In this document: piece by piece, positions 1 through 59,507 of the stretch
Position numbering within the stretch: position 1 is the stretch's first letter
Layout: each line of letters opens with the position of its first letter
Assembly: GCA_963840455.1 (NCBI GenBank)
Contig: CAWIYV010000014.1
Coordinates: 160,001 to 224,000 of the forward strand
Reading direction: 5' to 3'
From: Nitrospirota bacterium
Lineage (GTDB): Bacteria; Nitrospirota; UBA9217
Length of the DNA stretch: 64,000 nucleotides
Notes under the pieces: generated by a model
The model's database searches: none
What the model was told of the DNA's origin: nothing
What the model saw: the letters and a program-made list of their open reading frames with translations, nothing else
Made by a program: the position numbers and the translations under genes

Positions 1-883
1 CGAGGTCACGGACGATGAGGTGATCAAGACCATCGATCGCCTTCGTGAGATGTACGCCCGCCTCGAGGTGGTGGAGGGTCAGGCATTGGACACTACCCAT
101 ACGGCAATCATCGATTTTGAGGGTTTTCGTGAAGGCAAGTCCATCGCAGGAACCAATGCAAAGGATTACACGCTCATGCTTGGAACCGGGAGTCTGATCC
201 CGGGCTTCGAAGAGCAGCTTATCGGCATGAACAAGGGCGACACGAGGGAGATCAGGGTCGACTTCCCCGCGGATTACAACAACAAGGAACTCGCCGGGAA
301 GGACGCAGCATTCACCGTCACGCTGAAAGAAGTGAAGAAAAAGGTCCTTCCTGACCTGAACGATGAGTTTGCCAAGGATATCGGTGATCACAAGACCGTG
401 GACGACCTGAAGGCCAGGATCAGGGAGGACCTGGAGATCCGGAAGAAGAACGAGCAGGCAGCGGGGCAGCGCGAAGAGATCATGAACAAGCTCGTGGATG
501 CCCACGCCTTCGATGTTCCCGAGGGGATGGTGGAAAAGGAGCTGATGGACATGGCTCGCAGCCAGGCGATGCGTGCTGCGCGGCAGGGTATGGACCTGAA
601 GACCTTCGATGTTGCGCAGTTCCGGCTGACGAACCGCGACCTGGCGGTGAAGCGCGTGAAGGGATTCCTGCTGCTTGATGAGATTGCAGACCGGGAAGAG
701 GTCGAAGTGACCGACAACGAGGTGAATGCGGCCCTCGCCGCCGCGGCCCAGGGAGCAGGCAAGAAACTGGAAGAGGTCAGGAAGTACTACGAGTCCCAGG
801 AGGGCGGCATGGACAACCTGAAGATCAGCCTTATCCATGAAAAGACCCTGTCCCTCTTGCTTTCCAAAGCGAAGAAGGTATAG
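1..883 (+). CDS. tig: Trigger factor, 5'-truncated by the window edge
   Basis: FKBP-like segment IDFEG...LIPGFEEQLIGM...FPADY followed by helical C-terminal domain; directly upstream of clpP-clpX. Confidence 0.95.
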   Translation, partial: EVTDDEVIKTIDRLREMYARLEVVEGQALDTTHTAIIDFEGFREGKSIAGTNAKDYTLMLGTGSLIPGFEEQLIGMNKGDTREIRVDFPADYNNKELAGKDAAFTVTLKEVKKKVLPDLNDEFAKDIGDHKTVDDLKARIREDLEIRKKNEQAAGQREEIMNKLVDAHAFDVPEGMVEKELMDMARSQAMRAARQGMDLKTFDVAQFRLTNRDLAVKRVKGFLLLDEIADREEVEVTDNEVNAALAAAAQGAGKKLEEVRKYYESQEGGMDNLKISLIHEKTLSLLLSKAKKV

Positions 884-3506: not shown

Positions 3507-3576
3507 ATCCCTTGATGACCGGTCTTTTCTCCTGTATCCTATTTCCTATCTTCTGACTCCTGATTCCTGAGTTCCG
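3476..3576. repeat. Heptamer tandem-repeat arms at engB 3' end and intergenic
   Basis: GCCAGGG-GCCAGTT-GCCCGGA-GCCCGAA, then TCCTGTA-TCCTATT-TCCTATC-TTCTGAC-TCCTGAT-TCCTGAG. Confidence 0.65.
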
Positions 3577-3597
3577 CCGTTCACCGGGGGTGCTTCC

Positions 3598-5127
3598 ATG
3601 GAACTTCTCAAGGTCCTGACCGGTTCGCTCTTCTGGGCGACGACCGTCAGCATAGCCCTGTTCGTGGCGGGCAGCATCGCGACGAACTACCTGGCGAAGA
3701 AGTCCACGCTCCTGAAGCCCATCGCCTCGGGCCTTAAGCTCGTGCTCCTGTTCGTCGTAATCCAGGTGTTCCTGCACCTCGGCGCCGCGGAAGCCTATCC
3801 CCGCATTTCCCGCCAGCTGAGCTTCCTCTCGTGGATCGTCGCCGTCTTCTCTCTTCTGCGCCTGGTCCTGTACATGTACGGCGACCTGTTCGTCGTACGC
3901 TGGAAGAAGGGGAGCTTCCCGGCGGCGTTCAAGAACATCATTACGGCCGTCGTCACAGTCGTCGCGATCCTGATCCTGCTGAAGGAGATCATGGACATCA
4001 ATGTCACGTCCCTGATCGCCACGACCACGGTTCTGACCGCCACCATCGGTCTGGCGTTCCAGAGCACCCTGGCCAACATGCTGGCGGGCCTCACGATCCA
4101 TCTGGAGAAGCCGCTCAAGCAGGGCGATTGGATCGCCGCCGGCGGGCATGAGGGGCATGTGCTGGACATCACGCTCCGCGCGACGCGGATCATCACGCTG
4201 GAGAACAACGAGGTGTTCATACCGAACAGCAAGGTGCTCTCGGAATCCGTGGTCAATTACAGCCTGCCCGACCCGATCAGTATCCAAAAGCTCTCGGTCG
4301 GCGTCGGTTATGACATCCCCCCCAACACCGTGCGCAAGGCGGTCCTGGACGTCCTGGCGACCGTGCCCGGCGTGGACATGAGCTCGCACCCGGCGGTGCG
4401 GTTGACGGGGTACGGTGATTTCGCGGTGAATTACGACGTGCGCTACGCCATCCATGAGTACCACCGGCACGCGGATATCGCGGCCGAGATCATGAACCTC
4501 CTGTGGTACCGATTCAAGCGGGACGGCATCGAGATCCCCTATCCGGTCCGCACGGTCCACCTCAGGGAGGTCACGGCGGAAAGCCTTCGCGCCGAACGCG
4601 AGCGAGAGGTTGCCGAGGTCCTGGCGCTCATGGAGAAGGTGGACATCCTGGCACCGCTGTCGGTCCCGGAACGGCGCCGGCTGGTCGAGGCTGTGGGCGT
4701 CAAGACCTACGCTGCCGGCGAGTGCCCTGTGCGTCAGGGGGAGGCGGGCGATTCCTTCTATATCATCAAGAAGGGGTCCGTGGACGTCATCGTGGAGAAG
4801 GCTGGGGGCGAAGGTGTCGTGGTCGCCACGCTGGCAACGGGGAACCTCTTCGGCGAGATGAGCCTTCTGACCGGGGCGGCCCGGACTGCGACCATCCGGG
4901 TGAAGGAGGATGCCGAGTTCGTGGTCATCGACCGTGAGAGCTTCCGGGACACTCTGGTCCACAACCCGTCCATCGCCGAGTCCCTGAGCCGCATCCTCGC
5001 GGAGCGCCAGGCCGAGCTGGCCGCGCAGCGGGAGAAACTCGATGCCATCACTCTCGAGCGGCGCAAGCGGGACGAATCGGGGAAACTGCTTCACAACATC
5101 AGAGAATTCTTCGGCCTGCACAATTAG
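3598..5127 (+). CDS. MscS-family mechanosensitive channel with C-terminal cyclic-nucleotide-binding domain
   Basis: TM helices, GLAFQSTLANMLAGL, GDWI, IPNS; cNMP motif GEAGDSFYII...FGEMSLLTGAARTAT. Confidence 0.9.
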   Translation: MELLKVLTGSLFWATTVSIALFVAGSIATNYLAKKSTLLKPIASGLKLVLLFVVIQVFLHLGAAEAYPRISRQLSFLSWIVAVFSLLRLVLYMYGDLFVVRWKKGSFPAAFKNIITAVVTVVAILILLKEIMDINVTSLIATTTVLTATIGLAFQSTLANMLAGLTIHLEKPLKQGDWIAAGGHEGHVLDITLRATRIITLENNEVFIPNSKVLSESVVNYSLPDPISIQKLSVGVGYDIPPNTVRKAVLDVLATVPGVDMSSHPAVRLTGYGDFAVNYDVRYAIHEYHRHADIAAEIMNLLWYRFKRDGIEIPYPVRTVHLREVTAESLRAEREREVAEVLALMEKVDILAPLSVPERRRLVEAVGVKTYAAGECPVRQGEAGDSFYIIKKGSVDVIVEKAGGEGVVVATLATGNLFGEMSLLTGAARTATIRVKEDAEFVVIDRESFRDTLVHNPSIAESLSRILAERQAELAAQREKLDAITLERRKRDESGKLLHNIREFFGLHN

Positions 5128-9407: not shown

Positions 9408-11237
9408 TCAGCTCATTCTTTGCTTTACCGCCTCCACGATCGCTTTCGCGGATATCCCTTCATACTCCAGCAATTCCTCCGGTTTGCCGCTCTTCGGCAT
9501 GGCGCGGACAGCGAGGCCGTGGACCGGGACCGGGTCTTTTGACAACGCGGTCCGGACCGCGTCGGCGATGCCACCCTCGGCATAGTGGTCCTCCACGGTG
9601 ATGATGAATCCCGTATCGTCGGCCGCCTGGCGGAGGGTCGCCACATCGACGGGCTTCACGCTGTAGAGATCGATGACGCGGATAAGGATGCCTTCCTTCC
9701 TGAGAGCGTCATATGCCTTGAGAGCCTCATGGAGGGTGATGCCCGCGGCCACCACGGTAGCCTTGTCCTTTTTGCTCGAACGTAGGATTTTGCTCCCCCC
9801 GATCCAGAAGGCCTCGTCGTTCCGGTAGAGGATGGGCGTGTCCATGCGTGTCGTGCGCAGATAGCAGATGCCCTGGTGCTTTGCCATCTCTTCGACGAGC
9901 TTCTCCGTGGACACGGCGTCGGACGGGTAGAACACTACGCTGCCGAGGATGGCACGGAACAGGGAGAGGTCCTCGAGTCCCATCTGGGACGACCCGTCCT
10001 CGCCGATGGAAACGCCGGCGTGGGAACCGCAGAACTTGACGTTCGCGTTCGAATATTGGCTCATGCGGACCTGGTCCGCGGCGCGGGTCATGAACGCCGC
10101 GAAGGTCGAGACAAAGGGCACCTTGCTCCGGATCGAGAGGCCGAGCGCCGTGCCGACCATGTTCTGCTCGGCGATGAACATCTCGAAGAACCGCTCGGGA
10201 TATGCCTTCTTGAATATCTCGGCGTAGGTCGAGTTGCTCACTTCGCCGTCCAGCACCACCAGGTCCGGATATTGCGAAGCAAGCCGAGTGAGGGCCGCGC
10301 CGTAGGCATGCCGTGTTGCGACCGGTTTTTCGGTTGTGTACGAGACGGACGCGGCCATAACAGATCTCACCCTCGCAGGCTTCGCCCCCTGCGGTGGCTC
10401 TATCCTTCCCCGGAGCCCCCTGTCCACCGGACCCAGCTCCCGGAGAGCCCGGGCAAGCTCGTCCTTCTTGAGCGCCTTGCCGTGCCAGCCGTTCTTGTCC
10501 TCGATGAATGACACGCCCTTTCCCTTGAGCGTCCTGGCGATGATCATGTATGGCCTGTCGCTCATCTGGGAAGCCTGCTCAAAGGCCGTCACGATCTGCG
10601 GAAGGTGATGGCCGTCGATGACGATAGGTTCCCATCCGAAGGCAGCGACCTTCCTCTTATATATTGAGAGGTCATGGCCGTACATGGTCTCACCGCGCTG
10701 GCCCAGCCTGTTCACGTCCAGGATGCCGACAAGATTGCCGAGCTTGTAGTATGCCGCGATCTCCATGGCCTCCCAGACCGAGCCTTCGGCCATCTCGCTG
10801 TCGCCGAGCAGCACATAGGTCCGGTAGGGGAGCTTGTCGAGATATTTCGCATTCATCGCCATGCCCAGCCCGATGGACAACCCCTGGCCCAGCGACCCGG
10901 TTGCCGCCTCGGTATAGCGGAACGCCGGGGTCGGATGTCCCTCCAAGGGACTGTTGAACTTCCGGAGGGTGAGCAGTTCCTTTTCCGTCACTTTTCCCGC
11001 GGCTGCCCAGATGGCATAGAACAGGGGAGAAGCGTGGCCTTTCGAGAAGATGAGCCGGTCATTGTTCGGGTGGCGGGGATCGTCCAGATCGAACCGGAAC
11101 GTGCCCCCGAACAGAAGGCCCGCCATCAGGTCGGCTGCCGACAGGGACGACGTGGGGTGGCCGGAGCCGGCCTCGGTCGTGGAAACAAGACTGTAGTAGC
11201 GGATAAGCTTTGCCAGACCTTCCAGGTCATTGTTCAT
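9408..11237 (-). CDS. tkt: Transketolase
   Basis: GSGHPTSSLS, SKGHA, TGSLGQG, GDSEMAEG, IAEQNMVG, GEDGSSQM; probable start MNNDLE with GGAGG RBS. Confidence 0.95.
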   Translation of the reverse strand: MNNDLEGLAKLIRYYSLVSTTEAGSGHPTSSLSAADLMAGLLFGGTFRFDLDDPRHPNNDRLIFSKGHASPLFYAIWAAAGKVTEKELLTLRKFNSPLEGHPTPAFRYTEAATGSLGQGLSIGLGMAMNAKYLDKLPYRTYVLLGDSEMAEGSVWEAMEIAAYYKLGNLVGILDVNRLGQRGETMYGHDLSIYKRKVAAFGWEPIVIDGHHLPQIVTAFEQASQMSDRPYMIIARTLKGKGVSFIEDKNGWHGKALKKDELARALRELGPVDRGLRGRIEPPQGAKPARVRSVMAASVSYTTEKPVATRHAYGAALTRLASQYPDLVVLDGEVSNSTYAEIFKKAYPERFFEMFIAEQNMVGTALGLSIRSKVPFVSTFAAFMTRAADQVRMSQYSNANVKFCGSHAGVSIGEDGSSQMGLEDLSLFRAILGSVVFYPSDAVSTEKLVEEMAKHQGICYLRTTRMDTPILYRNDEAFWIGGSKILRSSKKDKATVVAAGITLHEALKAYDALRKEGILIRVIDLYSVKPVDVATLRQAADDTGFIITVEDHYAEGGIADAVRTALSKDPVPVHGLAVRAMPKSGKPEELLEYEGISAKAIVEAVKQRMS

Positions 11238-11316
11238 GGGAACCTCCCTTATCGTCATTCGGTCAGACAAGAATATCGGATCCTGCAGCGACGCACCATT
11301 TGGGCATTGATAGCAG

Positions 11317-11363
11317 ATCCGTCGTTATCACAGATCTGCATCTGTTTTTATCCGTGTCAAAGA
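11317..11363. repeat. Solo right arm of the TTTGACACGGA palindromic element family
   Basis: atccgtcgttatca...atccgtgtcaaaga, complementary to arms at 18411 and 20172. Confidence 0.7.
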
Positions 11364-11390
11364 TTTGCCGGGTATCCCGGGCTGACCAGA

Positions 11391-12845
11391 TCACGATAGG
11401 ATCCTCTCGATGAGCCGGAGCAGGAACTGCGGAGCTGTACCGACGCCGACGAGCAGTACCGCCTGCAAGGCCACGACGACGACGCCGAATACCGGCAGGC
11501 GGCGATCAACGGGCCATTGCACTCCGTCCGGCGCATCATCGGGACCGCTGTACATGGTCATAATGACGCGCAGATAATAGTAGGCGCTGACACCGGTGTT
11601 GATCACGAGCGCCAGGACCAGTACGAGATGCTTCGATGCCATGCCTGCGGCCACGAGGGAAAACTTGGCGATGAATCCCGCGAAGAGCGGAATGCCGAGC
11701 AGCGAGAGGATCGCCGCGGACAGGACCAGGGCGATCCCGGGTCTGCGCCAGGCGAGTCCCGTGTAGCCGTCCAGGTCATCGGCATCAGCATCAGCTCCCG
11801 ACAGGAGCGTCACGACCCCGAATGAGGCGAGGTTCGTTACGACGGTGAAGAAGAGGTAGATGAGGACCGCCGTCTGCGCCAGGAGGCCGCCCGACAAGAA
11901 CGCCACAAGCAGGTAGCCGTTATGGGCTATGGTCGAATAGGCGAGCATGCGTTTGACGCTCTGCTGCCGGAGGGCAAGAAGATTTCCGAGGGTCATCGAT
12001 GCGATGGAAATAGCGGAGAACAGGATGAACAGAAAACGGTCGTTCTCGATAAGGGAGGGCGGAAAGAGCCGCAGGAGCACGGTGATGACCGCCGCCTTCG
12101 ACACCGTGGAAGCAAATATCGTCACGGGTGCCGGAGCGCCTTCATAGACGTCCGGGGCCCACACATGAAAGGGGACCAGGGCGAGCTTGAAGCCCAGCCC
12201 CGCGATAAGGAGTGCCACGCCGAGATGATGGACCGGCGTCTGTGCACTCAGAAGCCGGAAGGAGGTGATGGCAGGGCCGAACAGCAGGCTTCCGGATCCG
12301 GCATACAGGAGCGCAATACCAAAAAGCAGGAATGCCGAGGAGACGCCGGAGAGGACCAGATATTTGAAGCCCGCTTCGATCCCGCGCGGACGATGGCGGT
12401 TATAAGCTGCCATGGCGACCAGGGGGATGCCGATGAGCTCGACCCCGAGAACGAGGGAGGCAAAGTGTGAGCTGGCGATGAGCACGAGGCCTCCCAGGGT
12501 CGCCAGCATCAGGAGTATGGTGAACTCACCTGCGGGCAACGCCTGCCTCTTGAAGTAGGGGTGAGCAAGGATGATGACGCACAACGCGGCGAACAGGACC
12601 AGACCGGTCGAGAACGCGGCAACGCCGTCAAGAAAAAGCAGGTCCGTACAGGGAGCCGGCAGACGGGGCATGACGGCGCCGAGGGAGAGCAATGAGCAGA
12701 TCAGGGTGAGGCCCGCGAGGAAAAGAACGGCCGCCTGGCGGCGAAATACCGCGGCGGAGATCAAGACGATGACCGTGCCCGCGGCAAGGATGACATGCGG
12801 GAGAATGGTCAGGAGATCAAAGCGCGTCACAGGCATCCCGGTCAT
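11391..12845 (-). CDS. nuoN: NADH-quinone oxidoreductase subunit N
   Basis: Highly hydrophobic; [38 protein letters not shown]; alternative GTG start at 12830. Confidence 0.95.
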
Positions 12846-13153
12846 CCTTTCATGGCCGATGCCTCGCGGGCATCAAGCGACCTGAAACGGTGATAGAAGT
12901 TGAGGACGAGGGCCAGCCCCACGGCGACCTCGGCGGCTGCAAGGGTCAGGATGAAGATGAACATCACCTGGCCGTCCGCCTGGCCCCAGTGGGCGCCCGC
13001 GACGATGAATGCCAGGCCCGCGGCATTCAGCATGATCTCCAGGGACATGAGCATGAAGACGATGTTCCTGCGGACCAGAACGCCGGCGAGGCCGAGCGAG
13101 AACAGGATGGCCGCAAGGATCAGGCCGTGTTCCAGGGGGATTGTTGCGATCAT
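12842..13153 (-). CDS. nuoK: NADH-quinone oxidoreductase subunit K
   Basis: [27 protein letters not shown]; ATGA overlap with nuoN. Confidence 0.95.
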
Positions 13154-13172
13154 AGGCAAACATCCTTTCTTG

Positions 13173-13250
13173 GACACTGAAGACTCTGAGAGAAGCTATG
13201 AAGAACCCATGAAAAGGCCATTTCCTCTTATGGTCAGTGTCCTCAGTGTC
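13173..13250. repeat. Palindromic element at nuoJ/nuoK junction
   Basis: gacactgaagactctga ... tcagtgtcctcagtgtc inverted arms with 9-bp period. Confidence 0.8.
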
Positions 13251-13747
13251 TAATTGTTCTGTTCCCGTCGTCCGAGATGATACGCACCCACGAGTCCTGC
13301 CAGCAGGAGCATGGATGCCAGTTCCACGCCGAGCGCGTAGGGGCCGAAGAGCGCAATGCCGACCTGCTTCGGAGGAATCGGCGCGCCGCTCAGGACCTGG
13401 GCGCCGTCATGCAGGAAGAAGTAAGCGAGCTCGAGCGCCAGGATGCCGCAGAGGATCGAAGGTCCCCGCCAGATGCCGGGCCTCAACCACTGCGCTTCCT
13501 GCCGCGCCGTTGCGCTGCCCAGGTTCAACATCATGATCACAAAGATGAACAGGACCATGATGGCGCCTGCATAGATGATGATCTCGAGCGCCGCTGCAAA
13601 AGGTGCGCCGAGGGTAAAAAAGAGGAGCGCCACGGACAGGAGCGATACGATGAGATACAGCAGCGCATGCACCGCGTTCGTCCGGGTGATGACCATGACG
13701 GTCGCGATGACCGCCACGAAGGCTGATATATAAAACAGAACATTCAT
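13250..13747 (-). CDS. nuoJ: NADH-quinone oxidoreductase subunit J
   Basis: NAVHALLYL, IIIYAGAIMVLFIFVIMML, ELASMLLL. Confidence 0.95.
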   Translation of the reverse strand: MNVLFYISAFVAVIATVMVITRTNAVHALLYLIVSLLSVALLFFTLGAPFAAALEIIIYAGAIMVLFIFVIMMLNLGSATARQEAQWLRPGIWRGPSILCGILALELAYFFLHDGAQVLSGAPIPPKQVGIALFGPYALGVELASMLLLAGLVGAYHLGRREQNN

Positions 13748-13758
13748 AAAATATCCTT

Positions 13759-13922
13759 CGCCACTGGCGCAGAGACACAGAGAGAGCCAAAATAGTTTAC
13801 CGCAGAGGAACAGAGGAAAGTCTGAAAAGAGGAAGGCGAGAACGTGGGAAGAGAGGCGAACTATCTTGCTTCCCTTCTTAATTTCTCAGCGCTTTTCTCT
13901 GCGCCTCTGAGCCTCTGTGGCG
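13759..13922. repeat. Palindromic element at nuoI/nuoJ junction (compound)
   Basis: cgccac...cagagacacagaga ... tctctgcgcctctgagcctctgtggcg, plus internal accgcagaggaacagag arm. Confidence 0.75.
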
Positions 13923-13926
13923 GATT

Positions 13927-14442
13927 CTACGGCAGCAGGCTTTTCACGTCCACCGGTGGTTCCTCGTTCAATCCTTCTCCCTTGTCCTTACCCCCGATGG
14001 CCAGGCCGGCGACCTTATAGAAGTCATACCCGGGATATTTCCCCGGGCCGCTGATCAGCAGGTCCTCTTTTTCATACACCAGGTTCTGCCGGACATACTC
14101 GCCCATCTCGAAGTCCGTCGTCAGCTGGATGGCATAGGTCGGGCATGCCTCCTCGCAGTATCCGCAGAAGATGCAGCGCGAGAAATTGATGCGGAAAAAG
14201 GACGGGTAACGCCTTCCCTGTTCGTCCTCCGCGGCCTGGAGCGAGATGCAGCTCACCGGACAGGCAACGGCGCAGAGGTTGCAGGCCACGCAGCGCTCCT
14301 TCCCTTCGGGGTCCCGGGAAAGGATGATCCTGCCGCGCCAGCGGGGCGGGATAGCAGGCCGGTCCTCGGGATACTGGAGCGTCGCCCGCTTCCGGAAGGT
14401 GGTCCTCAGGACCGTCCATATGGATCTGAGAAGACTGAACAT
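13927..14442 (-). CDS. nuoI: NADH-quinone oxidoreductase subunit I
   Basis: Two CxxCxxCxxxCP motifs; TLQYPE. Confidence 0.97.
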
Positions 14443-14451
14443 GAGTTTTTA

Positions 14452-14534
14452 TGACACGGAGGACACTGAAAAGACGTATGAAGTTCTGTATTACATCATA
14501 GTTTTTTCATAGAACAACAGTGTCCTCAGTGTCA
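14452..14534. repeat. Palindromic element at nuoH/nuoI junction
   Basis: tgacacggaggacactg ... cagtgtcctcagtgtca. Confidence 0.8.
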
Positions 14535-14546
14535 AAATAGTATCTC

Positions 14547-15500
14547 TTAGCCTTTCATGAGTATCCAGGCTCCGGTCGCAACAAGGTTCGCCAGCGACAG
14601 CGGCAGCATCACTTTCCATCCAAAGGCCATGAGCTGGTCGTACCGGGGGCGGGGAAGCGACGCCCGGATCAATATGAAGAAACAGATGAAGACGAAGGTC
14701 TTGAGCAGGAACCAGACGATCGGCGGCAGGAGCGGCCCATGCCATCCGCCGAAGAACAGCACGACGGTCATGGCGGACATGAGCGTGATGCCCAGGTATT
14801 CGCCGGCGAAGAACAGGCCGAACTTCAGGCCTGAGTACTCTGCATGATACCCTGCGACAAGTTCGCTCTCGGCCTCGGGAAGGTCGAAGGGAAGGCGGCG
14901 GGTCTCAGCGATGCCGGCAATGAAGAAGACCGCGAAGCCAAAGAATTGAGGTACGATGAACCATTGGCGGCGCTGGGCCTCGACGATGGCGACCAGGTCG
15001 AAGGAACCCGCTATCATGACCACGCCCATGAGCGAAAGGCCCATGAACACCTCGTAACTCAGCATCTGTGCCGCCGCCCGCAGGCCGCCCAGCAGCGAGT
15101 ACTTGCTGTTCGAGGCCCAGCCGGCCAGGGCGACGCTGTACACGCTGAGCGATGACATGGCAAGAAAGAACAGGATGCCGATGTTCAGGTCCACGACCTC
15201 GATGCCGGGGGCGAAGGGGATGACGGCAAAGGACATGACCACGGCGACCATGATGATGGCAGGCGCCAGGACGAACACCGCCTTGTCGGCGAACGGCGGT
15301 ATCCAATCCTCCTTTGCGAGCACCTTGATCATATCGGCGGCCACCTGCAGGAGGCCGAACGGCCCGACCCGGTTCGGCCCGTAGCGGTACTGCCAAAGAG
15401 CGAGGAGCCGTCGTTCGAGCCAGATCAGCAGACCACCGACGGTCAGGACCGAGATGAGGACGCTGAAAAGGATGATGAGGTGAAGGATGGTATCGCGCAT
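14547..15500 (-). CDS. nuoH: NADH-quinone oxidoreductase subunit H
   Basis: [44 protein letters not shown]. Confidence 0.97.
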
Positions 15501-15533
15501 AATTGTTACGGAGCGTACCGTATTGTTTCCATC

Positions 15534-15630
15534 CTTTGCCGCCGAGAAACACAGAGGACACTAGAGAAAGGCCGGTATCCTTGGTGGTCCTGAATTCTTC
15601 CCGGTGAACTCGGAGACCTCGGTGGCAAAG
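15534..15630. repeat. Palindromic element at nuoG/nuoH junction
   Basis: ctttgccgccgag ... ctcggtggcaaag. Confidence 0.75.
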
Positions 15631-15648
15631 TATTTAAGGCTCTTGTTC

Positions 15649-18388
15649 CTATGACCGTTTGACGATGCTTCCGAACGCCGGACCGTTCATGCCCCCGAGG
15701 GGGAGGACACCGGCCGGGTAGCCCGCCATGCCCGGCCGCAGGTCGGGCAGGATGGCCACGCGGCATTGGAGCCGTGTGCCGCCGGATAACAGCTCGACAA
15801 GGTCACCGGAAGATGCATTGAGCAGTTCCGCATCGCGCGGTCCCAGGGCAAGATAAGGTCCTGCTGCAAGTGCTGCGATGCCTGCAGCCTGTGCGCTCAG
15901 TTCCTCGGAGCCGAAGAGGTGATGCAGCGGGAACAGGAGCCATGTGCCCGGTCCTGTTGTAAAGGGCCCGGGAACGCCGTTGAAATAAGTCCCTGGCCCG
16001 GAGCTCCCCGGTCCCGGGAACAGCCTGCCCGCTTCTTCGCCTTCGGGCCGTACCGCCTCAGCGAATGCCGGCCCGTTCAACGCCTGGACCGAGTTCCATC
16101 CTGGCGACCAATACCGTGAGATGAGCGGCAAAGGCGGCCGGCCCTCGTAGCCTTCCATCGAGAAGGCCAGGGGAGAATCCGGGTCCTCCGGTGGTTTTTG
16201 TTCATGCACGTTCAAATTCGCAAGCATGGCAGTGCGCCCGCTGTACCGGTGCGGCTGTCGGGGGACCTTTGATCCCCTGATCCTGAATTCCGCCGGGGGC
16301 GCGATGTCCGCGGCAGGAGCAAGGACCGGCAAAGCCGATGCCATATGCTTCATGAGCGCGTCATAGGAGGGCGAACCTCCTACCGCCGTTCTCCCGGCCG
16401 CCTCCATTATATCATTGATCCATTTCCCGCTTGCCTGAATATCGCCCTGAGGGACGTATACCTGATAGGACCGCTGCGCCCGGCCTTCATTGTTCACCAG
16501 CGTCCCGTGCGATTCAGCGAAAGTGCCTGCGGGAAGTACGATGTCCGAGCGTGCTGTTGTTGCGTTGACAAGATGGTCGAGAACAATAATGTGCTTTGCC
16601 TTGCCAAGGAACGCGTCGATGGTCGCCCCGTCGCCCCTGCGGTAGAGATCGTTCTCAAGAATGATGACCGTATCGGCAAGGCCGTCCTGCATGACGGTGA
16701 AGGCTTCGCCAAGATTCCTGCCTCCCATGATGCCGGTACCCATGCTGTTGCATTCAGGGACCGTATAGCAGAGCGATGCGGCACTGCTGCTCCTGGAGAG
16801 GGCCACTGCCACGTTGGCCGCGGACATTACAATGGCATCGTTCTAGCAGACTTGTGCCGGAGACGATGAGCGGCCGCTTGGCGTCCTTGAGAGCCCGGGC
16901 GATCTGTCCGGCAAGCGCTGTGGCCTCAGGGTCCAGGTCAGCGACCTCAGGCTCAGCGGGGTCCAGTTCATGGGCAATGGCAAAGCCCAGCCGCGCGATA
17001 TCGTCGGGGGCGGCCTTATAAGACCTTGTCGAGATGTCGTCCAGTTTCGTATCGGTGACCGTGGCGATATACAGCGGGCTCTTCGCGCCCTGCCCGGCGT
17101 TCCGTACGCCTGCATCCTGCCATTTGGGGATCCTGAGCTTCGCTGCTGCATCAAGCTCTTTCTGGCGCACGGACTGGCGGAGCGAGAGGGCAAGGAGGGG
17201 GGCCGTGTTCGTCACATCCTCTCCCAGGACCAGCACCGCATCGGCGTTCCGGACATCGTGCAGGGAAGACGGCCGGGCAGGGCCTCTCCCGAGGACATCA
17301 ATGATCCGGGAGACGAGCGCATGGTCCTTATCTGACATGCCGGAGTAGAAGTTCTCCGGTCCGACAAGCGTGCGCAGAGCAAAGTTGGATTCCAGCGATG
17401 CGCGGGGCGAGCCTATGCCGATGATGCCCTTGCTGGTGGATAGGATTTCGGCGATGCGCTCGAGAGCGGATCCTTTTTCAACAGGCTGGAGGTCCCCCTC
17501 ACCCTGACCTCTCCCCGACAGGGAGAGGGGTAATATGGCAAGAGGTTTCCTGATGCGTTTATCGCTGTTCACGAACTCGTATCCAAACCGGCCACGGTCG
17601 CACAGGAAATAGCCGTTCACCTCGTAATGGAAGCGGTTCGCGATCCTGCGCAGGGAACGGTCGCGCTCGCCGGCGATGGTGTTGCATCCCAGACCGCAGT
17701 GAACACAGATGGACGGCGCGGTCTGGAGGTCCCATTTGCGGGTGAAGTGCTGCTTCAGGGTCTTGTCGGTGAACACGCCCGTGGGGCAGACCTCGACCAG
17801 GTTGCCGCTGAACCCGCTTTCGAGCACGCCGTCTTCTTGCCTGCCGAAATACACGTGGTCGTGGGCGCCGAATACATTCAGGTCCCGCCCCCCCGCGTAC
17901 TCCCGGTAGAACCGAACGCACCGATAGCACTGGATGCACCGGTTCATCTCGTGGTTGATGAATGGGCCCAGGTACTGGTTCCGGTGCGTGCGTTTCCTGA
18001 ATCGCGTGCGGCGGTACGCATGGCCTGTCATGACCGTCATGTCCTGGAGGTGACATTCGCCGCCTTCGTCGCATACCGGGCAGTCGTGCGGGTGGTTCAG
18101 CATGAGCCACTCGATCACTCCCTTCCGGAACGCCCTGGCATCCGGGTCGTCCACGGAGATGCGCATACCCTCGGTTACCGGGGTCATGCAGGACATGATG
18201 ATCTTCCCGCGCCGGTCGTGTTCGTCCTTGAACTGCTTGACCGCGCACTGGCGGCAGGCGCCAACGGCATGCAGGGCGGGGTGCCAGCAGAAGTAGGGAA
18301 GGTCGAACCCCAGCGAGAGGCACGCCTGGAGAAGGTTCTGGTCAGGCCTGACCTGGCGGGGCTGGTTGTCGATGAAGATCGTGATCAT
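15649..18388 (-). CDS. nuoG: NADH-quinone oxidoreductase subunit G, split by a single-base frameshift near 16845
   Basis: [44 protein letters not shown] in ORF 16754-18421; C-terminal half in ORF 15649-16827; removing one base in ctgctagaac joins the frames. Confidence 0.9.
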
Positions 18389-18410
18389 AGGGATAAGAAA
18401 AACAAAGATG

Positions 18411-18886
18411 ACCTTTGACACAGATTTACACTGATTAAAATCCTGATAACGGCGGATACTTCTTTTCTTGATTAATAGACACGGCGAACGATCTTGAGTT
18501 TCTCTCCGAAATTGACCAAGAGGCCGACTTTGATACCGGTAGCCTTGAGATAATTCACCAATTGTGCTTCATGGGCTTTTGACAGAGTGGATATGGCTTT
18601 CAACTCAACGATGACCTTGTCCTCGACAAGAAGGTCAGGAAAATATTCTCCAACAAGCTGCTTTTCAAAGAAGACATTAACCGGGACTTGTTGAACTGCT
18701 GTCAGACTCTTTTGGGCTATCTTGATCATCATCGCATTTTCGTACACTTTCTCGGAAAAGCCAAAGCCGAGCTGATTATAGACATCGTATGCACATGCGA
18801 TGATTTTATCCGTCAGTTCAGCGTGTAGATAATTCTTATCCGCAGTTATCATAGTGATATCCGCCTCTTCTGTGTCTAAGGTTATC
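18411..18886. mobile_element. Inverted-repeat-bounded element carrying the GxxExxY gene
   Basis: Left arm acctttgacacaga...cctgataacggcggata (18411-18458), right arm tatccgcagttatc...tctgtgtctaaggttatc (18837-18886); same arms occur empty at 20172-20293. Confidence 0.7.
18472..18852 (-). CDS. GxxExxY protein (PD-(D/E)xK nuclease-like)
   Basis: [46 protein letters not shown]; lower GC than flanking nuo genes. Confidence 0.93.
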
Positions 18887-20153
18887 TCCACGGGCACTTC
18901 TTCTCCCGTATGTGCCGTTCGAAATCCTCCCGGAAGTACTTCAACGCGCTCTGGAGCGGCTCCACGGCGCCGGGGGCCAGGGCGCAGAAGGTATTGCCCG
19001 GGCCCAGGAGCCTGCACTGCTGCTCCAGGACCTCGATGTCTGACTGTTCACCCTGTCCGGTCTCGATGGCATCGAGGAGCTTAACGATCCACGGTAGCCC
19101 TTCGCGGCATGGCGTGCACCAGCCGCAGGACTCTCGGGCAAAGAAGGCTTCCAGGTTGTGAACGAACCCGACCGGGCAGGTCCGGTCATCGAGAACGGTC
19201 ATGGTGCCGGTGCCCATGCGGCTTCCGGCCTTCACGATAGAATCAAAATCCATCTGAACGTCCAGGTGGTCCGCGGTGAGAAAATCTGTCGAGGCACCGC
19301 CCGGGACCAGGCCCCGCAGGGCATAGCCGTCCTGCATGCCGCCCGCGTGGTCCTCAAGCAGCTCACGGATGGTGGTGCCCATGGGAAGCTCCCAGGCGCC
19401 CGGCCGTTTCACCCTGCCGGACACGCCGTAGATCTTGGTCCCGCCGTCGGCGGTCCTGCTGAGCGCCTTGAACCACCCGGGCCCGTTGTTCACGATGTGC
19501 GGAATGTTCGCGACCGTTTCCACATTGTTGACGACGGTGGGCCTGCCCCAGAGGCCGCAGGCCAGGGGAAAGGGCGGCTTTGCTCGGGGCGTGGCGCGTT
19601 TTCCCTCGAGCGCGTTGATCAGGGCCGTTTCCTCGCCGCAGATGTAGCGGCCCGCGCTGGTGTGGATGCGGAGCTCGAGGTTATACCCGGAGCCCAGGAT
19701 GTTGGCTCCGAGGTAGTTCTTTTCGTACGCCTCGGCGATGGCCTTGTTCAGACGCTTCTCAGCGAGCGTATATTCCCGGCGGAGGAAGATATAGGCCTTT
19801 TCCGCCTGAACGGCGTAAGAGCTCGTGATGATCCCTTCGATCATCTGGTGCGGATCACCCTCCAGCAGAAATCGGTCCTTGAAGGTCCCGGGTTCCATCT
19901 CGTCGGCGTTCACGATAAAGTAGCGGGGCTGCGGAACATTGCCGACCGGAAGCGCCAGGCCCCACTTCATGCCCGTGGGAAAGCCTGCGCCGCCGCGGCC
20001 GCGAAGGTCCGAGGCCTTGACCATCGTGATGATGTCCTTGGGAGCCATGGCGAGCGCCTTGCGGCCGGACCGGTAGCCGCCGGCCTTCTCGTATTCCGCG
20101 AGCGAGAGGGGCTCCTGACCGGGGCGTATGTTCTGAGTTAAAGGGCGTTCCAT
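18882..20153 (-). CDS. nuoF: NADH-quinone oxidoreductase subunit F
   Basis: LRGRGGAGFPTGMKW, NADEMEPGTFKD, YICGEETAL, ESCGWCTPCREG. Confidence 0.98.
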   Translation of the reverse strand: MERPLTQNIRPGQEPLSLAEYEKAGGYRSGRKALAMAPKDIITMVKASDLRGRGGAGFPTGMKWGLALPVGNVPQPRYFIVNADEMEPGTFKDRFLLEGDPHQMIEGIITSSYAVQAEKAYIFLRREYTLAEKRLNKAIAEAYEKNYLGANILGSGYNLELRIHTSAGRYICGEETALINALEGKRATPRAKPPFPLACGLWGRPTVVNNVETVANIPHIVNNGPGWFKALSRTADGGTKIYGVSGRVKRPGAWELPMGTTIRELLEDHAGGMQDGYALRGLVPGGASTDFLTADHLDVQMDFDSIVKAGSRMGTGTMTVLDDRTCPVGFVHNLEAFFARESCGWCTPCREGLPWIVKLLDAIETGQGEQSDIEVLEQQCRLLGPGNTFCALAPGAVEPLQSALKYFREDFERHIREKKCPWR

Positions 20154-20171
20154 GATAGAGCCTTAACGAAC

Positions 20172-20293
20172 GATAACCTTTGACACGGAAGAGGCGGATG
20201 AAAAGCCTGATAACGGCGGATTACATGAATGCTGCTGGCTAAAGATCTATCCGCTCTTATCTGTAGTTCAATCCGATTTTATCCGTGTCAAAG
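20172..20293. repeat. Empty copy of the GxxExxY-bounding element at nuoE/nuoF junction
   Basis: gataacctttgacacggaagaggcggat...cctgataacggcggat ... atccgctcttatc...atccgtgtcaaag. Confidence 0.85.
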
Positions 20294-20300
20294 AAATCGT

Positions 20301-20765
20301 TTAAATATACTTTTCCAGGATCCCGTCCAGCATCTCCGGCGTCATGGGGCCGTACAGGTCATCGTTCACCAGCATGGCCGGCGCGCGGTCACAGGCGCCG
20401 AGGCAGGCGACCGGCAGCAAGGTGAAGCGGTTGTCCGGCGTCGTGCCGCCGGGCCCGATGCCGAGCTTCTGAAGGAGCAGTTCGTATAGGGGGTTATATC
20501 CCATGGTCCAGCAGACCATGCTGTCGCAAATTTGAACGATATGCCTGCCCACGGGCCGCCGAAAGATGAAATTATAGAACGTCGCGACCGCGTCAAGCTC
20601 GGCCGGTGTCATGCCAAGCATGCCCGCGACGTCATGGATGCTTTCGTCGGATATCCAGCCGCGGTTCTTCTGCACGATCTTGAGCGCTTCGACGCTCGCG
20701 GATTCCGGGAGTTCGCAGCGCTCCAGCTCAGCGTCTATTTCATTTTTTTCTTCGTGCGTAAGCAT
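20301..20765 (-). CDS. nuoE: NADH-quinone oxidoreductase subunit E
   Basis: VATFY, CDSMVC, CLGACDRAP 2Fe-2S ligands. Confidence 0.96.
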   Translation of the reverse strand: MLTHEEKNEIDAELERCELPESASVEALKIVQKNRGWISDESIHDVAGMLGMTPAELDAVATFYNFIFRRPVGRHIVQICDSMVCWTMGYNPLYELLLQKLGIGPGGTTPDNRFTLLPVACLGACDRAPAMLVNDDLYGPMTPEMLDGILEKYI

Positions 20766-20794
20766 AAGGTCAAACCCTTTGTATCAGGTCTTAG

Positions 20795-20818
20795 ATCCGT
20801 GCAAATCCGTGTCCAAAG
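20795..20818. repeat. Solo arm at nuoCD/nuoE junction
   Basis: atccgtgcaaatccgtgtccaaag. Confidence 0.6.
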
Positions 20819-20824
20819 CTTTTA

Positions 20825-22570
20825 TCACCGGTCCAGATCAGCCAGAATAAAGTCAATGCTCCCCAGGATCGCCAGCAGGTCAGCGATCATCAAACCCTTC
20901 GCGACCTTCGGCACCATCTGGAGGTGCGGGAACGAAGGGGTGCGGATGCGGGTGCGATAGGAATGGATGTCCCCGTCGCTGACGAGATAGTATCCGTTGC
21001 TCCCCTTCGTCGCTTCGATGCCCATGAACACCTCGCCGGCCGGGACTACCGGGCCCCAGCTCACGCCGAGGAAGTGGGTGATGAGCGTCTCGATGTCCTT
21101 CATGGTCCGTTCCTTGGCTGGTGGCACCGCCAGGGGGTGGTCCGACTTGTACGGGCCTTCGGGCATGTTCTTCACGCACTGTTCGACGATGCGGAGGCTC
21201 TGGCGTATCTCTTCGATGCGGACCACGCCGCGGTCATAGCAGTCGCCGTTCTTCGCAATCGGGATGTCGAACTCGAAGTTCTCATAGCCCGAATAGGGCC
21301 GCTTCTTCCGGAAGTCCCAATCCATGCCGCAGGCGCGCAGCCCGGGGCCGGTCACGCCCCATTCAATGGCGTCCTCAAGCATATAGGCGCCCACTCCCTT
21401 GGTCCGGCCCTTGAAGATGCTGTTCCGCATCACGATCCTGTCGTACTCGGCAAGCCGCGGCGGGAGGTATTTCAAAAAGTCCTTCATCAGCCGCTCCCAT
21501 CCACGCGGGAGGTCCTGTGCCACGCCGCCGATGCGGAACCATGCCGGGTGCATCCGTCCGCCGCAGACCGCCTCTACGATGTCAAAGACGCGCTCCCGGT
21601 CGGTGAACATGTAGAACACAGGCGAGAAGGAGCCCACGTCCTGGGCGAAGGTCCCGTACCAGACCAGATGGCTCTGGATGCGGAACAGCTCGGCCATCAT
21701 CACGCGGATGACCTTGACCCGGTCCGGCACCTCGATGCCGGCGAGCTTCTCCACGGCAAGGACATAGGCGAGGTTGTTCATCACGCCGCCGAAGTAGTCG
21801 ACGCGGTCGGTGTAGGGGATGTAGGTATGCCAGGTCTGGCGCTCGGCCATCTTCTCGGCGCCCCGGTGGTGATAGCCGATGTCGAGCACGGCGTCCCTGA
21901 TCTCCTCGCCGTCGAGCTGGAGGATGATGCGCAGCAGGCCATGGGTGCCGGGGTGCTGGGGTCCGAGGTTCAGGAACATGAGGTCAGTGTCGTCACTGTG
22001 CCGTTCCATGCCCCAGTCCTCAGGCCGGAACCGGAGCGACTGCTGCTCGGTGTCCATCCGCTCCTCATGCATGCGGAAAGGGCCCATCTCCGTGGCGCGG
22101 GCGGGATGGTCCTTGCGCAGGGGGTGGCCGCTCCAGGTGGGCGGCATCAGGATGCGGCTGAGATGCGGGTGGCCGTCGAACTTCACTCCGAACATGTCCC
22201 AGACCTCGCGCTCGTACCAGTTCGCGGAAGGCCAGATATCCGTAATCGATGGCAGCGAAAGCGATGCCTCGGCAAGCGGCACCTTGACCCGGATGTCGTC
22301 GTTCCGGTCGAACGACAGGAGATGGTAGACGATGGTGAAGTCGGAGCCGGGCTGGTCCGGCCGGTTCTCGCGGACCCGTTCGTCAATGGCCGTGAGGTCG
22401 TAGAGCATCCGGTAGGGGCGTTCAACGGAGTTTTTGAGGTGCCGCAGGACGTCACGGACGCTGTCACGGGCCACCCATACCGTGGGGATGCTGTCCTTTG
22501 TTGGCTGGACCGCGAGGATGGCCTCGCCGAAGGAGGCTTTCAGATCAGCAATGATGGAGGCATGCGCCAT
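20825..22570 (-). CDS. nuoC: Fused NADH-quinone oxidoreductase subunit C/D
   Basis: [41 protein letters not shown], terminal ADLDR; probable start MAHAS. Confidence 0.96.
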
Positions 22571-22587
22571 AAATAAGATATGATATT

Positions 22588-22839
22588 TGACACTGAGGAC
22601 GCTGAGAAAATATGAAGAGAACCTCTGACACGGAAGGACCGGATAACGATCTGGATAAAGGCGGATAGATCCAGATCGCATCATTCAGAAAGTTAGCAAA
22701 CGTCTTTTCAGACTGGTCTTTACAGTGTCCTCAGTGTCCGTAGTATTGATTCTTGCCCTATCCGCTTTTATCCGGCTCTTGTTTGCCTTGATCCGTGTCA
22801 AAGGTCCTCTTATCGGTTCTTTCAGTGTCCTCAGTGTCA
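22588..22839. repeat. Nested palindromic elements at nuoB/nuoCD junction
   Basis: Outer tgacactgaggacgctga...tcagtgtcctcagtgtca; inner acctctgacacgga...tccgtgtcaaaggt (22621-22805); extra internal cagtgtcctcagtgtc arm. Confidence 0.85.
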
Positions 22840-22844
22840 GAAGA

Positions 22845-23459
22845 TCACACTTCATCAGGTGACGGAAGGTCCGTCGCGGCGATGCGCTCCTGCCGCTTTT
22901 GGTCGCGCATGCACGGCAGAGAGGGCCGCGCCACGCCCTGCGGTCCAGCGACCCAGCTCACCGGCCGGCGTTCAGCCCCGATCTTCTTCTGGAGCAGCAG
23001 GAGGCCCTCCATGAACGCTTCAGGACGGGGAGGGCAGCCCGGGATGTACACATCGACCGGGAGGAACTTGTCCACGCCCTGGACGACGCTGTAGATGTCG
23101 TACATGCCGCCGGAATTGGCGCACGATCCCATGGAAATGACCCAGCGCGGTTCCATCATCTGCTCATACAGCCGCTTGATGACCGGGGCCATCTTGATGA
23201 AGACCGTCCCGGCGACGACCATGAGGTCCGCTTCGCGTGGCGTGCCGCGAATCACCTCGGCGCCGAAGCGGGCAAGATCGTATTTGCTCGTGAGGCTGGT
23301 CGCCATTTCGACGTAGCAGCAGGAAAGCCCGAAGTTGAAGGGCCAGACCGAGTTCTTCCTGCCCCAGGCAAGCATGTCCTGGAGCCGGGTCAGAAGGAGG
23401 CTCTGACGGACGGCATCGTCTAGGGTTGGAGCGGAGGCTTTGGTGAGGGACCAGTTCAT
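22845..23459 (-). CDS. nuoB: NADH-quinone oxidoreductase subunit B
   Basis: [34 protein letters not shown]. Confidence 0.97.
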
Positions 23460-23493
23460 GAAACCGCCTTTAATACGAGAACGAAGAGTATTC

Positions 23494-23708
23494 GACACGG
23501 AGGATACGGAAAAAGCAATGATACCGTCGTGACCGGGGAACAAGAGAACCTTTGACACGGATCACGGCGGATCAAGGTTTCCGATAAAGACGGATAAGGC
23601 AGTGTTGATCATCTTTTGAACCTATCCGCAGCTATAATAGGTACCTATCAGTGAAAATCCGTTTCAAAGATCTTTTCTTCTTTATTTACTGCTCTCTGTC
23701 TCCGTGTC
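23494..23708. repeat. Nested palindromic elements at nuoA/nuoB junction, overlapping nuoA 3' end
   Basis: Outer gacacggaggatacgga...tctctgtctccgtgtc; inner acctttgacacggat...atccgtttcaaaga (23548-23670). Confidence 0.8.
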
Positions 23709-24106
23709 CCCTTGTCATCGCGTTGTTTTATCCCCCAGTCCAGCAAGCCGAGACGCCAGAGATAGGCTAGCGCGGCAGCTAGGACGCCGACGAAGACCAG
23801 GACCTCGGCGTATCCGGCCCATCCGGTCTCCCTGACGGCCACGGCCCAGGCATAGAGGAACGCGGCCTCCAGGTCGAAGACGAGGAAGATCACGGCAACG
23901 AGATAGAACTTGATGTCGAAGCGGACCTGCGCACTGCCCGTGGAGACGATGCCCGACTCGTAAGGCTCGCCGGTCGCCCGTTCGCGGTGGCGCTGTCCAA
24001 GCACGAAGGAAAGCCCGATCAGTCCGGCGATGATCACCACGATGGCCATAAAGTAGACCGCCAGCGGCCAGAACGTCTGATCGTCAATGACAGGGCTAGG
24101 CATCAT
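23648..24106 (-). CDS. nuoA: NADH-quinone oxidoreductase subunit A
   Basis: PYESGI, KFYLVAVIFLVFDLE, GLLDW; C-terminal tail encoded by repeat arms. Confidence 0.95.
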   Translation of the reverse strand: MMPSPVIDDQTFWPLAVYFMAIVVIIAGLIGLSFVLGQRHRERATGEPYESGIVSTGSAQVRFDIKFYLVAVIFLVFDLEAAFLYAWAVAVRETGWAGYAEVLVFVGVLAAALAYLWRLGLLDWGIKQRDDKGTRRQRAVNKEEKIFETDFH

Positions 24107-59264: not shown

Positions 59265-59507
59265 GGGTGTCAGCGGTGTCCTGATGTGCGGGTACTGCGG
59301 TCCCGCATGAGAGCAGAGATAGCGATACACACTCGATATGATTGCCATTATAGCGGGGAAATCCTTCAGATGCAAGTTGTTGCAGCGGGATGTGTTGCAG
59401 CGGGACGAGGCAGGAGATCAGGATCCGACAACAAGTATTGAGACAGGTCAGACGCGGATCAACATCATGATAAAAGAGAAAAGCGGATACTATCCAAAAC
59501 TAAGCAT

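Follow-up and report, generated by a model that had tools for sequence, protein, structure and literature searches.

What kind of element puts a small nuclease gene between nuoF and nuoG, closed in by inverted repeats that recur, empty, one gene away? The locus lies in a stretch of 64,000 nucleotides (nt) from a Nitrospirota bacterium (assembly GCA_963840455.1, contig CAWIYV010000014.1, positions 160,001 to 224,000; the whole stretch is called the window here), and the closest relatives of this host (G000 in our set) are Nitrospirota metagenome-assembled genomes (MAGs). The gene encodes a GxxExxY protein, and a sequence-only reading of the window had proposed that this protein and the inverted arms around it make up a pair of autonomous and non-autonomous mobile elements, analogous to repetitive extragenic palindromic (REP) sequences and the REP-associated tyrosine transposase (RAYT). 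We find that the window copy is a local instance of a general rule. Palindrome-bounded cassettes are a general class, in which inverted arms of short tandem units enclose a small promoter-less open reading frame (ORF) that runs in the sense of the host operon and has its start codon in the inner 5′ arm. Our favoured reading, held with moderate confidence, is that the feature belongs, as a copy with an ORF, to a large class of such mini-cassettes: selfish DNA that resembles the intervening sequences (IVSs) of ribosomal RNA (rRNA) but resides in the spacers of protein operons.

The ORF matches TIGR04256 (GxxExxY; 136.7 bits, cut-off 35) and PF13366 (PDDEXK_3; 140.1 bits, cut-off 22), the latter being its sole Pfam match above cut-off; the Pfam profile search gave it no match to a known transposase family. 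To describe the arms we used a profile (nhmmer) built from 16 arm copies of the CGGAT-type family, which finds 36 arms at E≤1e-3 in the genome and 11 in the window. Ten of the 36 lie inside ~13 kb of the nuo operon, and the eleventh window arm (59653-59701) lies outside it. The profile places an arm on either side of the gene (18408-18457 on the plus strand and 18838-18884 on the minus strand), as the sequence-only reading had it, and also at every other site listed there (11317, 20795, 22621-22805, 23548-23670 and 59450-59693), the one at 20795 being the weakest. Both of the nucleotide matches it described were recovered. These are the 28-nt inverted match between 18859-18886 and 20172-20199 (26 of 28 positions, 93%) and the exact 16-mer shared by 18442-18457 and 20206-20221; with up to 2 mismatches the 16-mer has two matches in the window against 0.04 expected, and none of 100 shuffles reaches two. 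To call the gene bounded by arms, however, understates the arrangement, as the 5′ arm is not merely adjacent. It consists of about four units of ~10–12 nt, each with a GAT or GA end, the ATG (18850-18852) falls within the third unit, and the first ~5 codons are themselves arm sequence. On the other side, the 3′ arm starts ~14 nt past the stop codon. Promoter and terminator scans of 18300-20400 gave a signal no higher than in shuffles.

The palindrome at nuoE|nuoF had been described as having both arms and no gene, and this holds: there is no ORF in it, and its predicted fold is a single hairpin, at −47.9 kcal/mol and z −5.3 for the nuo sense strand. It matches both ends of the nuclease cassette (type A below), including the unit that holds the start codon in the filled copy. 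A comparable relation is seen at nuoH|nuoI, where the ends of the ORF-less palindrome match both ends of a second kind of GxxExxY cassette (type B) found in two relatives (G002 and G021), although the host itself has no type-B gene. Because the matching inner segments are themselves arm units, the derived or ancestral status of the ORF-less copies is a matter of inference.

The 4.03-Mb host assembly contains six GxxExxY loci, three intact and three frameshifted or decayed. All six are bracketed by inverted arms of short tandem units, five recovered by automatic scans and the sixth by eye, and the unit varies by locus, being of the CACAGAG, CACGAAT, CGCGAAGG or GACACNGA/CGGAT type. The same genome has five loci encoding four-helix-bundle proteins of the rRNA IVS protein family (TIGR02436/PF05635); its 23S rRNA is not assembled. 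Inverted repeats flank all five, with tandem-unit arms in four, and together with the GxxExxY loci such arms are present at 10 of 11. A scan combining Tandem Repeats Finder (TRF) with pairing of arms finds 50–71 tandem-unit palindromes in the genome, depending on the threshold; they are mostly ORF-less, with loops of 12–100 nt, and their families include CGCAGAG, CGCGAAGG, CACGAAT and ATTGCGG. A CACAGAG-type palindrome also encloses a 120-aa ORF that lacks a Pfam match and begins with a signal-peptide-like N-terminus (L010, C9:240101-240900, ORF 183-542, minus strand).

We have set out to examine how general the association is by sampling GxxExxY loci from genomes taken one per species: the best 80 loci of 325 relatives among 521 candidate stretches, 76 of them usable, from Nitrospirota, Nitrospinota, Bacteroidota, Ignavibacteria, Desulfobacterota, Chloroflexi, Planctomycetota, Cloacimonadota and ANME-1-type archaea. 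The upstream flank was scored against the reverse complement of the downstream flank, with 30 shuffles per locus and control windows displaced by 520 nt. Complementarity exceeds the best of 30 shuffles at 58 of the 76 loci, and the median score is 15.25 against 8.5 for controls. A score of at least 16 is reached by 36 of 76 loci and by none of 137 control windows, so that the refuting outcome named by the sequence-only reading, GxxExxY genes elsewhere without enriched flanking arms, is clearly not what is seen. Named isolates among the carriers of a cassette include Flavobacterium tiangeerense (L032), Seramator thermalis (L057) and Phaeodactylibacter xiamenensis (L038). The sampled arms are again tandem units, mostly CRCNGA(T). 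CAGAT, GACAC and CACAG are 6–8 fold enriched, equally in the left arm and in the reverse-complemented right arm, and two or more units are present in both arms at 32 of 77 loci; reading these windows in reverse orientation brings the count down to 3 of 77. Successive CRCNGA units are spaced by 10 nt in 80 of 123 cases and by 9 nt in 19; we rely on this spacing, since a whole-flank period scan with 110-nt windows was uninformative.

The four-helix-bundle genes behave alike. Among the 27 usable loci from 29 further genomes in the phylum, 25 score above all shuffles and 16 reach 16 or more (controls, 0 of 51), with unit sequences that are extremely varied among loci. A density test used fixed 20-kb samples at arbitrary coordinates on long contigs. 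Eight genomes lacking GxxExxY and four-helix-bundle hits yielded one hit in 800 kb, GC-rich and likely a false positive, and three genomes that have such genes yielded 3 in 400 kb, all in G010 (0 in 280 kb of G016 and G021); the host has 50 hits in 4,030 kb. This test is underpowered, and the TRF-plus-pairing detector also misses the CGGAT-type family. The flanks of several Bacteroidota and other GxxExxY loci also share long direct repeats, with scores of 62–98 (L024, L036, L044, L051, L057, L071, L078 and L087), which suggests that whole palindromes are present on either side in tandem or nested copies. We see no sign of a phage or plasmid vehicle, because none of 50,697 phage records matches at E≤1e-8 and the 7 matches among 72,556 plasmid records are all below 60% identity.

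The GxxExxY gene has the same orientation as both neighbouring long ORFs at 49 of 63 loci and is opposed to one of them at 14, and to both at none. The sequence-only reading had suggested that the elements target gene junctions; cassettes do sit at junctions in sense orientation, but 'targeting' may say too much. One frameshifted GxxExxY cassette of the host, with CGCGAAGG-type arms (L003, C7:125301-126300), sits at a break in a tyrosine-recombinase frame, and because of this cassette in a broken integrase frame (C7:125659) the junction bias may be partly survivorship. The recombinase fragment at L003 has weak matches to Phage_int_SAM_4 and Phage_integrase, ending at profile position 53 of 172, and a repeat with a CTGCAG core directly follows the cassette.

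The nuo operon itself allows the cassettes to be followed at orthologous sites. We compared the nuo regions of 20 relatives (NuoF 66–86% identical); at nuoF|nuoG the comparison covers the host and 17 of the 20. The stretches from G012 and G018 are without nuoG, and G003, whose nuoF match is cut by a contig end, was left out. Type-A nucleases are found at this junction in the host and in G001, G013, G016 and G011, the four relatives being 72–78% identical to the window copy, while G019 has a type-A remnant with an internal deletion. In G002 and G021 the junction holds a type-B nuclease (54–63% identical to type A, ~58% to the window copy) with GACACTGAGGACAC arms. ORF-less palindromes of other arm families are found in the congeners G004 and G005 (CACAGAG type) and in G020, G024, G015 and G010; the spacers of G023, G006, G008 and G007 are without clear tandem-unit arms, and that of G017 is only 11 nt long. 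The type-A orthologue at nuoF|nuoG of one Nitrospirae MAG (L016, 1201-1575) has a single in-frame stop near the C-terminus.

In each lineage the nucleases diverge in step with NuoF. G001 and G002, however, have NuoF proteins that are 88% identical but carry type A and type B respectively, 54% identical to each other; the cassettes are thus long-lived and also exchanged. Other nuo junctions likewise vary among congeners in arm family or presence. A third GxxExxY lineage occurs at nuoI|nuoJ in G005 and G002, and G016 has a nuclease copy riddled with stop codons at nuoJ|nuoK. The nuo operon of G021 holds at least three ORF-bearing cassettes (L103, coordinates 1413-1814 and 3543-3988), among them a DUF559 nuclease (PF04480, 119 bits) at nuoCD|nuoE within G/C-rich inverted tandem-unit arms and, at nuoB|nuoCD, a 104-aa frame for a small hydrophobic membrane protein within CGCAGAG-type arms. 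The 332-nt nuoA|nuoB spacer of G005 was considered as a decayed cassette and rejected, being two tandem ORF-less palindromes. That ORF-less copies arise by deletion is suggested by the internal deletion in G019 and the stop-ridden copy of G016, from which we infer the direction. GxxExxY genes are multi-copy (0–10 matches, many of them fragments) and found in 20 of 24 genomes of the host's own family, against one of 16 from other families of the phylum. Further away, Nitrospinota has such a cassette between pyruvate kinase and an RNase-H-like gene, and another MAG has one flanked by cdsA and dxr; these are 70–75% identical to that of the window and share its arm type. Judged from these sequence comparisons, close relatives have gained or lost cassettes, or exchanged one for another, at the same junctions, and transfer between phyla has occurred. 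The data from relatives show evolutionary mobility and a strong bias to co-oriented junctions.

Could the palindromes instead be host-beneficial hairpins, processing or stabilizing the intercistronic RNA and tuning nuo subunit ratios, with the ORF incidental? The ORF-less nuo copies do fold far better than shuffles, with sense-strand z values from −2.6 to −5.3. Most nuo junctions have a predicted hairpin, 10 of the 36 family arms are concentrated in this one operon, and the type-A cassette has long been retained at nuoF|nuoG. However, G017, G015, G008 and G007 have compact nuo junctions without palindromes. Arm families are also not positionally fixed: congeners carry different ones, or none, at the same junction. 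The same elements occur in unrelated operons and phyla, the arms have no sense-strand wobble bias, and many nuclease copies are pseudogenes. We consider a host function of this kind improbable. The features of the window are collected in the table.

Table. Cassette, arms, palindromes and neighbouring genes in the window (minus denotes the strand of the nuo operon).
Feature	Position	Strand	Remarks
GxxExxY / PDDEXK_3 nuclease ORF, 126 aa	18472-18852	minus	Between nuoF and nuoG
5′ arm of cassette (sense strand)	18838-18886	minus	Profile match 18838-18884, E 5.6e-4
3′ arm of cassette, four units	18408-18457	minus	Profile E 5.2e-10; pairs with the 5′ arm as closing stem of the predicted RNA fold
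nuoF, upstream of cassette	18882-20153	minus	TIGR01959, 593.5 bits; stop codon abuts the 5′ arm
nuoG, downstream of cassette	16754-18388	minus	TIGR01973, 536.5 bits
ORF-less palindrome, nuoE|nuoF	20172-20294		Same arm family as nuclease cassette; arms 20173-20222 and 20249-20294
Arm remnant, nuoCD|nuoE	20782-20821		Profile E 0.012
nuoB|nuoCD spacer	22585-22849		CGGAT-type ORF-less palindrome (22619-22666 / 22760-22808) amid GACACTGAGGAC-type units
ORF-less palindrome, nuoA|nuoB	23545-23670		Left arm strong (23545-23595), right degenerate; fold z −2.6
ORF-less palindrome, nuoH|nuoI	14449-14537		Fold z −4.7
nuoI|nuoJ spacer	13748-13926		Tandem-unit arms of CACAGAG/CGCAGAG type
ORF-less palindrome, GACACTGAGGACAC type, nuoJ|nuoK	13173-13254		Fold z −3.4
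Single CGGAT-type arm past the last nuo gene	11317-11364		Profile E 1.3e-8
CGGAT-type arms around an unrelated repeat module	59450-59701		59653-59701, profile E 4.9e-6

The operon runs on the minus strand in the order nuoA, nuoB, nuoCD, nuoE, nuoF, nuoG and nuoH-K, followed by a PF00361 antiporter-like subunit. NuoG (15649-18388) is split into two reading frames of 544 and 392 aa that overlap by ~74 nt, the second bearing molybdopterin-type domains; a two-part NuoG is found in all relatives examined, most with a ~70-nt gap between the matched parts. In the host, as in congeners G002 and G005, nuoK is directly followed by one 484-aa PF00361 subunit and then by a transketolase-like gene (9408-13177 in the window), whereas other genera of the family have ~3.5 kb between nuoK and the matching PF00361 subunit; nuoL/nuoM may be absent from the nuo locus of this congener group. 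The module between the arms at 59450-59701 belongs to a second, unrelated repeat family (59500-59625) with a palindromic core, CTGCAGCAAGCTGCAGGGA, that occurs in more than 20 places in the host genome, often as inverted pairs 800–1535 nt apart (also C14:415821, C14:47212 and C9:299269-301036). It lies between CGGAT-type palindrome arms as though inserting into their loops.

The protein is under strong purifying selection, because dN among type-A orthologues is low (0.13–0.20) while synonymous sites are saturated; 4 of 55 pairs are usable, with a median dN/dS of 0.065. Many nuclease copies elsewhere are pseudogenes. Across 43 diverse aligned sequences G31, E34, Y37, D73, E83, K85, Q97 and Y101 are invariant. 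They include the pattern D..ExK..QxxxY, that of RecB/Cas4-type DNA nucleases. The AlphaFold model (predicted local distance difference test score, pLDDT, 92.5) has an alpha/beta nuclease-like fold, for which the best PDB match, a weak one, is Cas4 SSO0001 (E 1.5e-3, template modelling score 0.53), followed by other matches, likewise weak but consistent, to lambda-type exonucleases, the AdnAB nuclease domain, an archaeal Holliday-junction resolvase and tRNA-splicing endonucleases. A search of the PDB by sequence gave no meaningful match (best E 0.84).

The likeness to tRNA-splicing endonucleases (2zyz, 3iey and 1a79; E 0.02–0.3) brings up a further explanation: that the GxxExxY protein is an RNA endonuclease excising its own cassette at the arm stem, with an RNA ligase rejoining the exons, the whole being an mRNA 'intron' comparable to archaeal bulge-helix-bulge splicing. 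The strict sense orientation would suit it, as would arms made of short helices parted by symmetric purine-rich mismatches. However, DNA nucleases of the Cas4/RecB type, for which the residue pattern above is typical, give the best matches in fold, the 10-nt unit phase suggests duplex DNA, and the four-helix-bundle cassettes carry no nuclease at all. We give this explanation almost no credence. As for what is on record, excerpts of PMC3424549 enter PF13366 with the function 'Unknown' and with 'multiple transfers' (inter-domain), and place a homing endonuclease and a transposase subunit in the PD-(D/E)xK superfamily.

How might such a cassette persist in an essential operon and spread? In both the minimum-free-energy and the centroid fold the cassette as a whole is closed by a stem of its two arms, with the start codon buried; the folding of the ORF-less copies and the absolute bias in orientation likewise favour an RNA stem. 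Under the favoured reading the selfish cassette would ride on transcription of the host operon, and its arms in the polycistronic RNA would form a long stem closing off the ORF. The stem is probably cut by RNase III, by analogy with the rRNA IVSs, which would let the operon tolerate the insert. The RecB/Cas4-like nuclease would most likely serve the element itself, and the ORF-less palindromes would be non-autonomous or relic forms. Our best guess, held with clearly less than even confidence, is that the nuclease recognizes or cuts the DNA of the arms, and that ORF-less palindromes whose arms match thereby receive a copy of the ORF, by homing-type gene conversion and not by classical transposition. 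More tentative still is its widest version, in which pan-prokaryotic, as yet unnamed mini-cassettes encode a GxxExxY, DUF559 or four-helix-bundle protein that reads the ~10-bp-phased arm units and copies its own cassette into matching palindromes, RNase III processing neutralizes the insert, and the rRNA IVSs are a subset.

Several observations weigh against this reading, or against parts of it. On the RNA side, the processing of the stem has analogy as its basis. For the nuoE|nuoF copy the antisense strand gives the stronger fold (−54.9 kcal/mol, z −7.2), and transition mismatches between arms have no G-U asymmetry favouring sense RNA (288 vs 274). The spacers between units are often non-complementary between the arms and purine-rich on the sense strand in both, while the cores of the units stay conserved among orthologues with saturated synonymous sites. 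The 10-nt unit phase, one turn of duplex DNA, suggests that duplex binding suits the arms at least as well as an RNA stem. In our view the RNA and the DNA level both count: the RNA stem is tolerated and probably processed, and on DNA the iterated units are recognized by their sequence. On the side of mobility, the homology available for gene conversion is only ~45 bp of arm, and target-site duplications are not evident at nuoF|nuoG in the host and 17 relatives, a comparison without a recent empty/filled pair. The type-A cassette is kept at nuoF|nuoG across at least five genera, which would also fit a domesticated, host-useful gene. That the nuclease itself moves the cassette is plausible. The autonomous/non-autonomous framing of the sequence-only reading thus stands in part: filled and empty copies share arms and have moved in evolution, but the nuclease as mobilizing enzyme is unproven, and the non-nuclease cargo under the same architecture (the four-helix-bundle proteins, and the small membrane protein of G021), like the match of that architecture with rRNA IVSs, leaves the framing incomplete.

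The same cargo bears on the remaining alternative, that the palindromes are a mobile unit moved by a trans-acting enzyme of the host or of an element, as REP sequences and their hairpin-forming doublets (REPINs) are by RAYT or miniature inverted-repeat transposable elements (MITEs) by the transposase of an insertion sequence (IS), with the small ORFs as passengers of the loop, retained for defence, addiction or the like, and with a nuclease that does not act on the arms. One architecture with cargo as diverse as PF13366, PF05635, PF04480, the 104-aa membrane protein and the 120-aa ORF is what such passengers would look like. ORF-less copies far outnumber ORF-bearing ones, the host has no cognate copy with an ORF for its largest ORF-less families (CGCAGAG type and, in the nuo operon, GACACTGAGGACAC type), and G020 has such palindromes with no detectable GxxExxY gene; the last two points also count against the reading we prefer. 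We found, however, no candidate transposase: PF01797, the Y1 transposase, is present in the host as two remnants only (C10:393728-394087 and C14:236761-237003), each with an in-frame TAG, and just one of them lies near an arm (~430 nt from a CGGAT-type arm). The fit of the ORF to its arms, with the start codon in one and the stop abutting the other, would be unexpected for random passengers. Two of the cargo families are PD-(D/E)xK nucleases, of a superfamily that, in excerpts of PMC3424549, has a homing endonuclease and a transposase subunit. We regard the passenger explanation as unlikely and return to the IVS-like mini-cassette as our favoured reading.

How does this mini-cassette compare with known systems? 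A RAYT system, the analogy drawn by the sequence-only reading, is rejected, since PF01797 survives only as the two broken remnants and solo arms are not linked to them; the nearest analogue is another. Like REP/REPIN-RAYT pairs, the cassettes combine palindromic repeats in intergenic DNA with a low-copy gene that has these repeats on both sides. They differ in that the enclosed gene is PF13366 and not a Y1 (HUH) transposase, and in that the arms are tandem-unit arrays of which many unrelated low-copy families coexist. With MITE/IS pairs, Correia elements of Neisseria and enterobacterial repetitive intergenic consensus (ERIC) sequences they share ORF-less copies of ~100–150 nt that have termini in common with the ORF-bearing copy, residence in operon spacers and hairpin folds; transcripts of Correia elements are cleaved by RNase III. 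Presence/absence polymorphism at orthologous sites, here the nuo junctions, is likewise shared with MITE/transposon pairs. Unlike MITE/IS pairs, the cassettes have no known transposase family, no target-site duplication was seen in our comparison, and the termini are iterated units instead of simple terminal inverted repeats. Integron cassettes and attC sites offer promoter-less small ORFs in one orientation and an imperfect palindrome, but here the ORF lies inside the palindrome, the cassettes are dispersed in operons and not arrayed beside an integrase, and there is no attC-type core. Homing endonuclease genes are similar as small nuclease ORFs with intact catalytic residues, patchy, horizontally transferred and placed in conserved housekeeping loci, and a Vsr/DUF559-type group I intron endonuclease with the PD-(D/E)xK fold is on record (excerpts of PMC3424549). 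Unlike them, the cassette ORF is free-standing, and its presumed target is a dispersed palindrome and not a unique allele. We found no intron or intein around it: Rfam gave no match at gathering score in the window, and at E≤1 across the nuo region (11200-23800) just two irrelevant sub-threshold matches.

A full-text search found no published account of operon-spacer cassettes or of arms around GxxExxY genes; most subscription journals lie outside its coverage, and earlier notes are possible. PF13366 and PF05635 are multi-copy in many of the genomes searched and, with PF04480 (DUF559), are without an established biological role. The present data give all three a shared genomic context: an ORF in an inverted tandem-unit array, sense-oriented at operon junctions, with ORF-less derivatives and turnover. 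If our reading is true, the cassettes would be a new kind of spacer-dwelling selfish element in operons and a possible source of new sequence- or structure-specific minimal nucleases, and many low-complexity N-terminal extensions of annotated 'hypothetical' proteins would be translated arms.

The closest known system is the ORF-bearing 23S rRNA IVS of Coxiella and Leptospira, not RAYT/REP. Excerpts of PMC4990558 describe the Coxiella IVS as an inverted-repeat stem in which 2–3 tandem GACAGAT heptamers directly precede a sense-strand four-helix-bundle ORF; repeat number varies by strain, the ORF decays and RNase III cuts at the first repeat. For the Leptospira IVS the same excerpts give evidence for horizontal transfer. 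The mini-cassettes share with these elements, as described there, an inverted-repeat stem around a small sense-strand ORF, short tandem repeats before the start codon, a sporadic distribution, horizontal transfer, ORF decay and ORF-less forms. Five cassettes of the host genome even encode the IVS protein family itself (S23p, four-helix bundle, PF05635). In contrast to an IVS, the window cassette lies in the nuoF|nuoG mRNA spacer and not in an rRNA helix, its cargo is a PD-(D/E)xK nuclease, and its units are ~10 nt apart where those of the IVS are 7. If the favoured reading is true, the rRNA intervening sequences would be a special case of a much wider element class.

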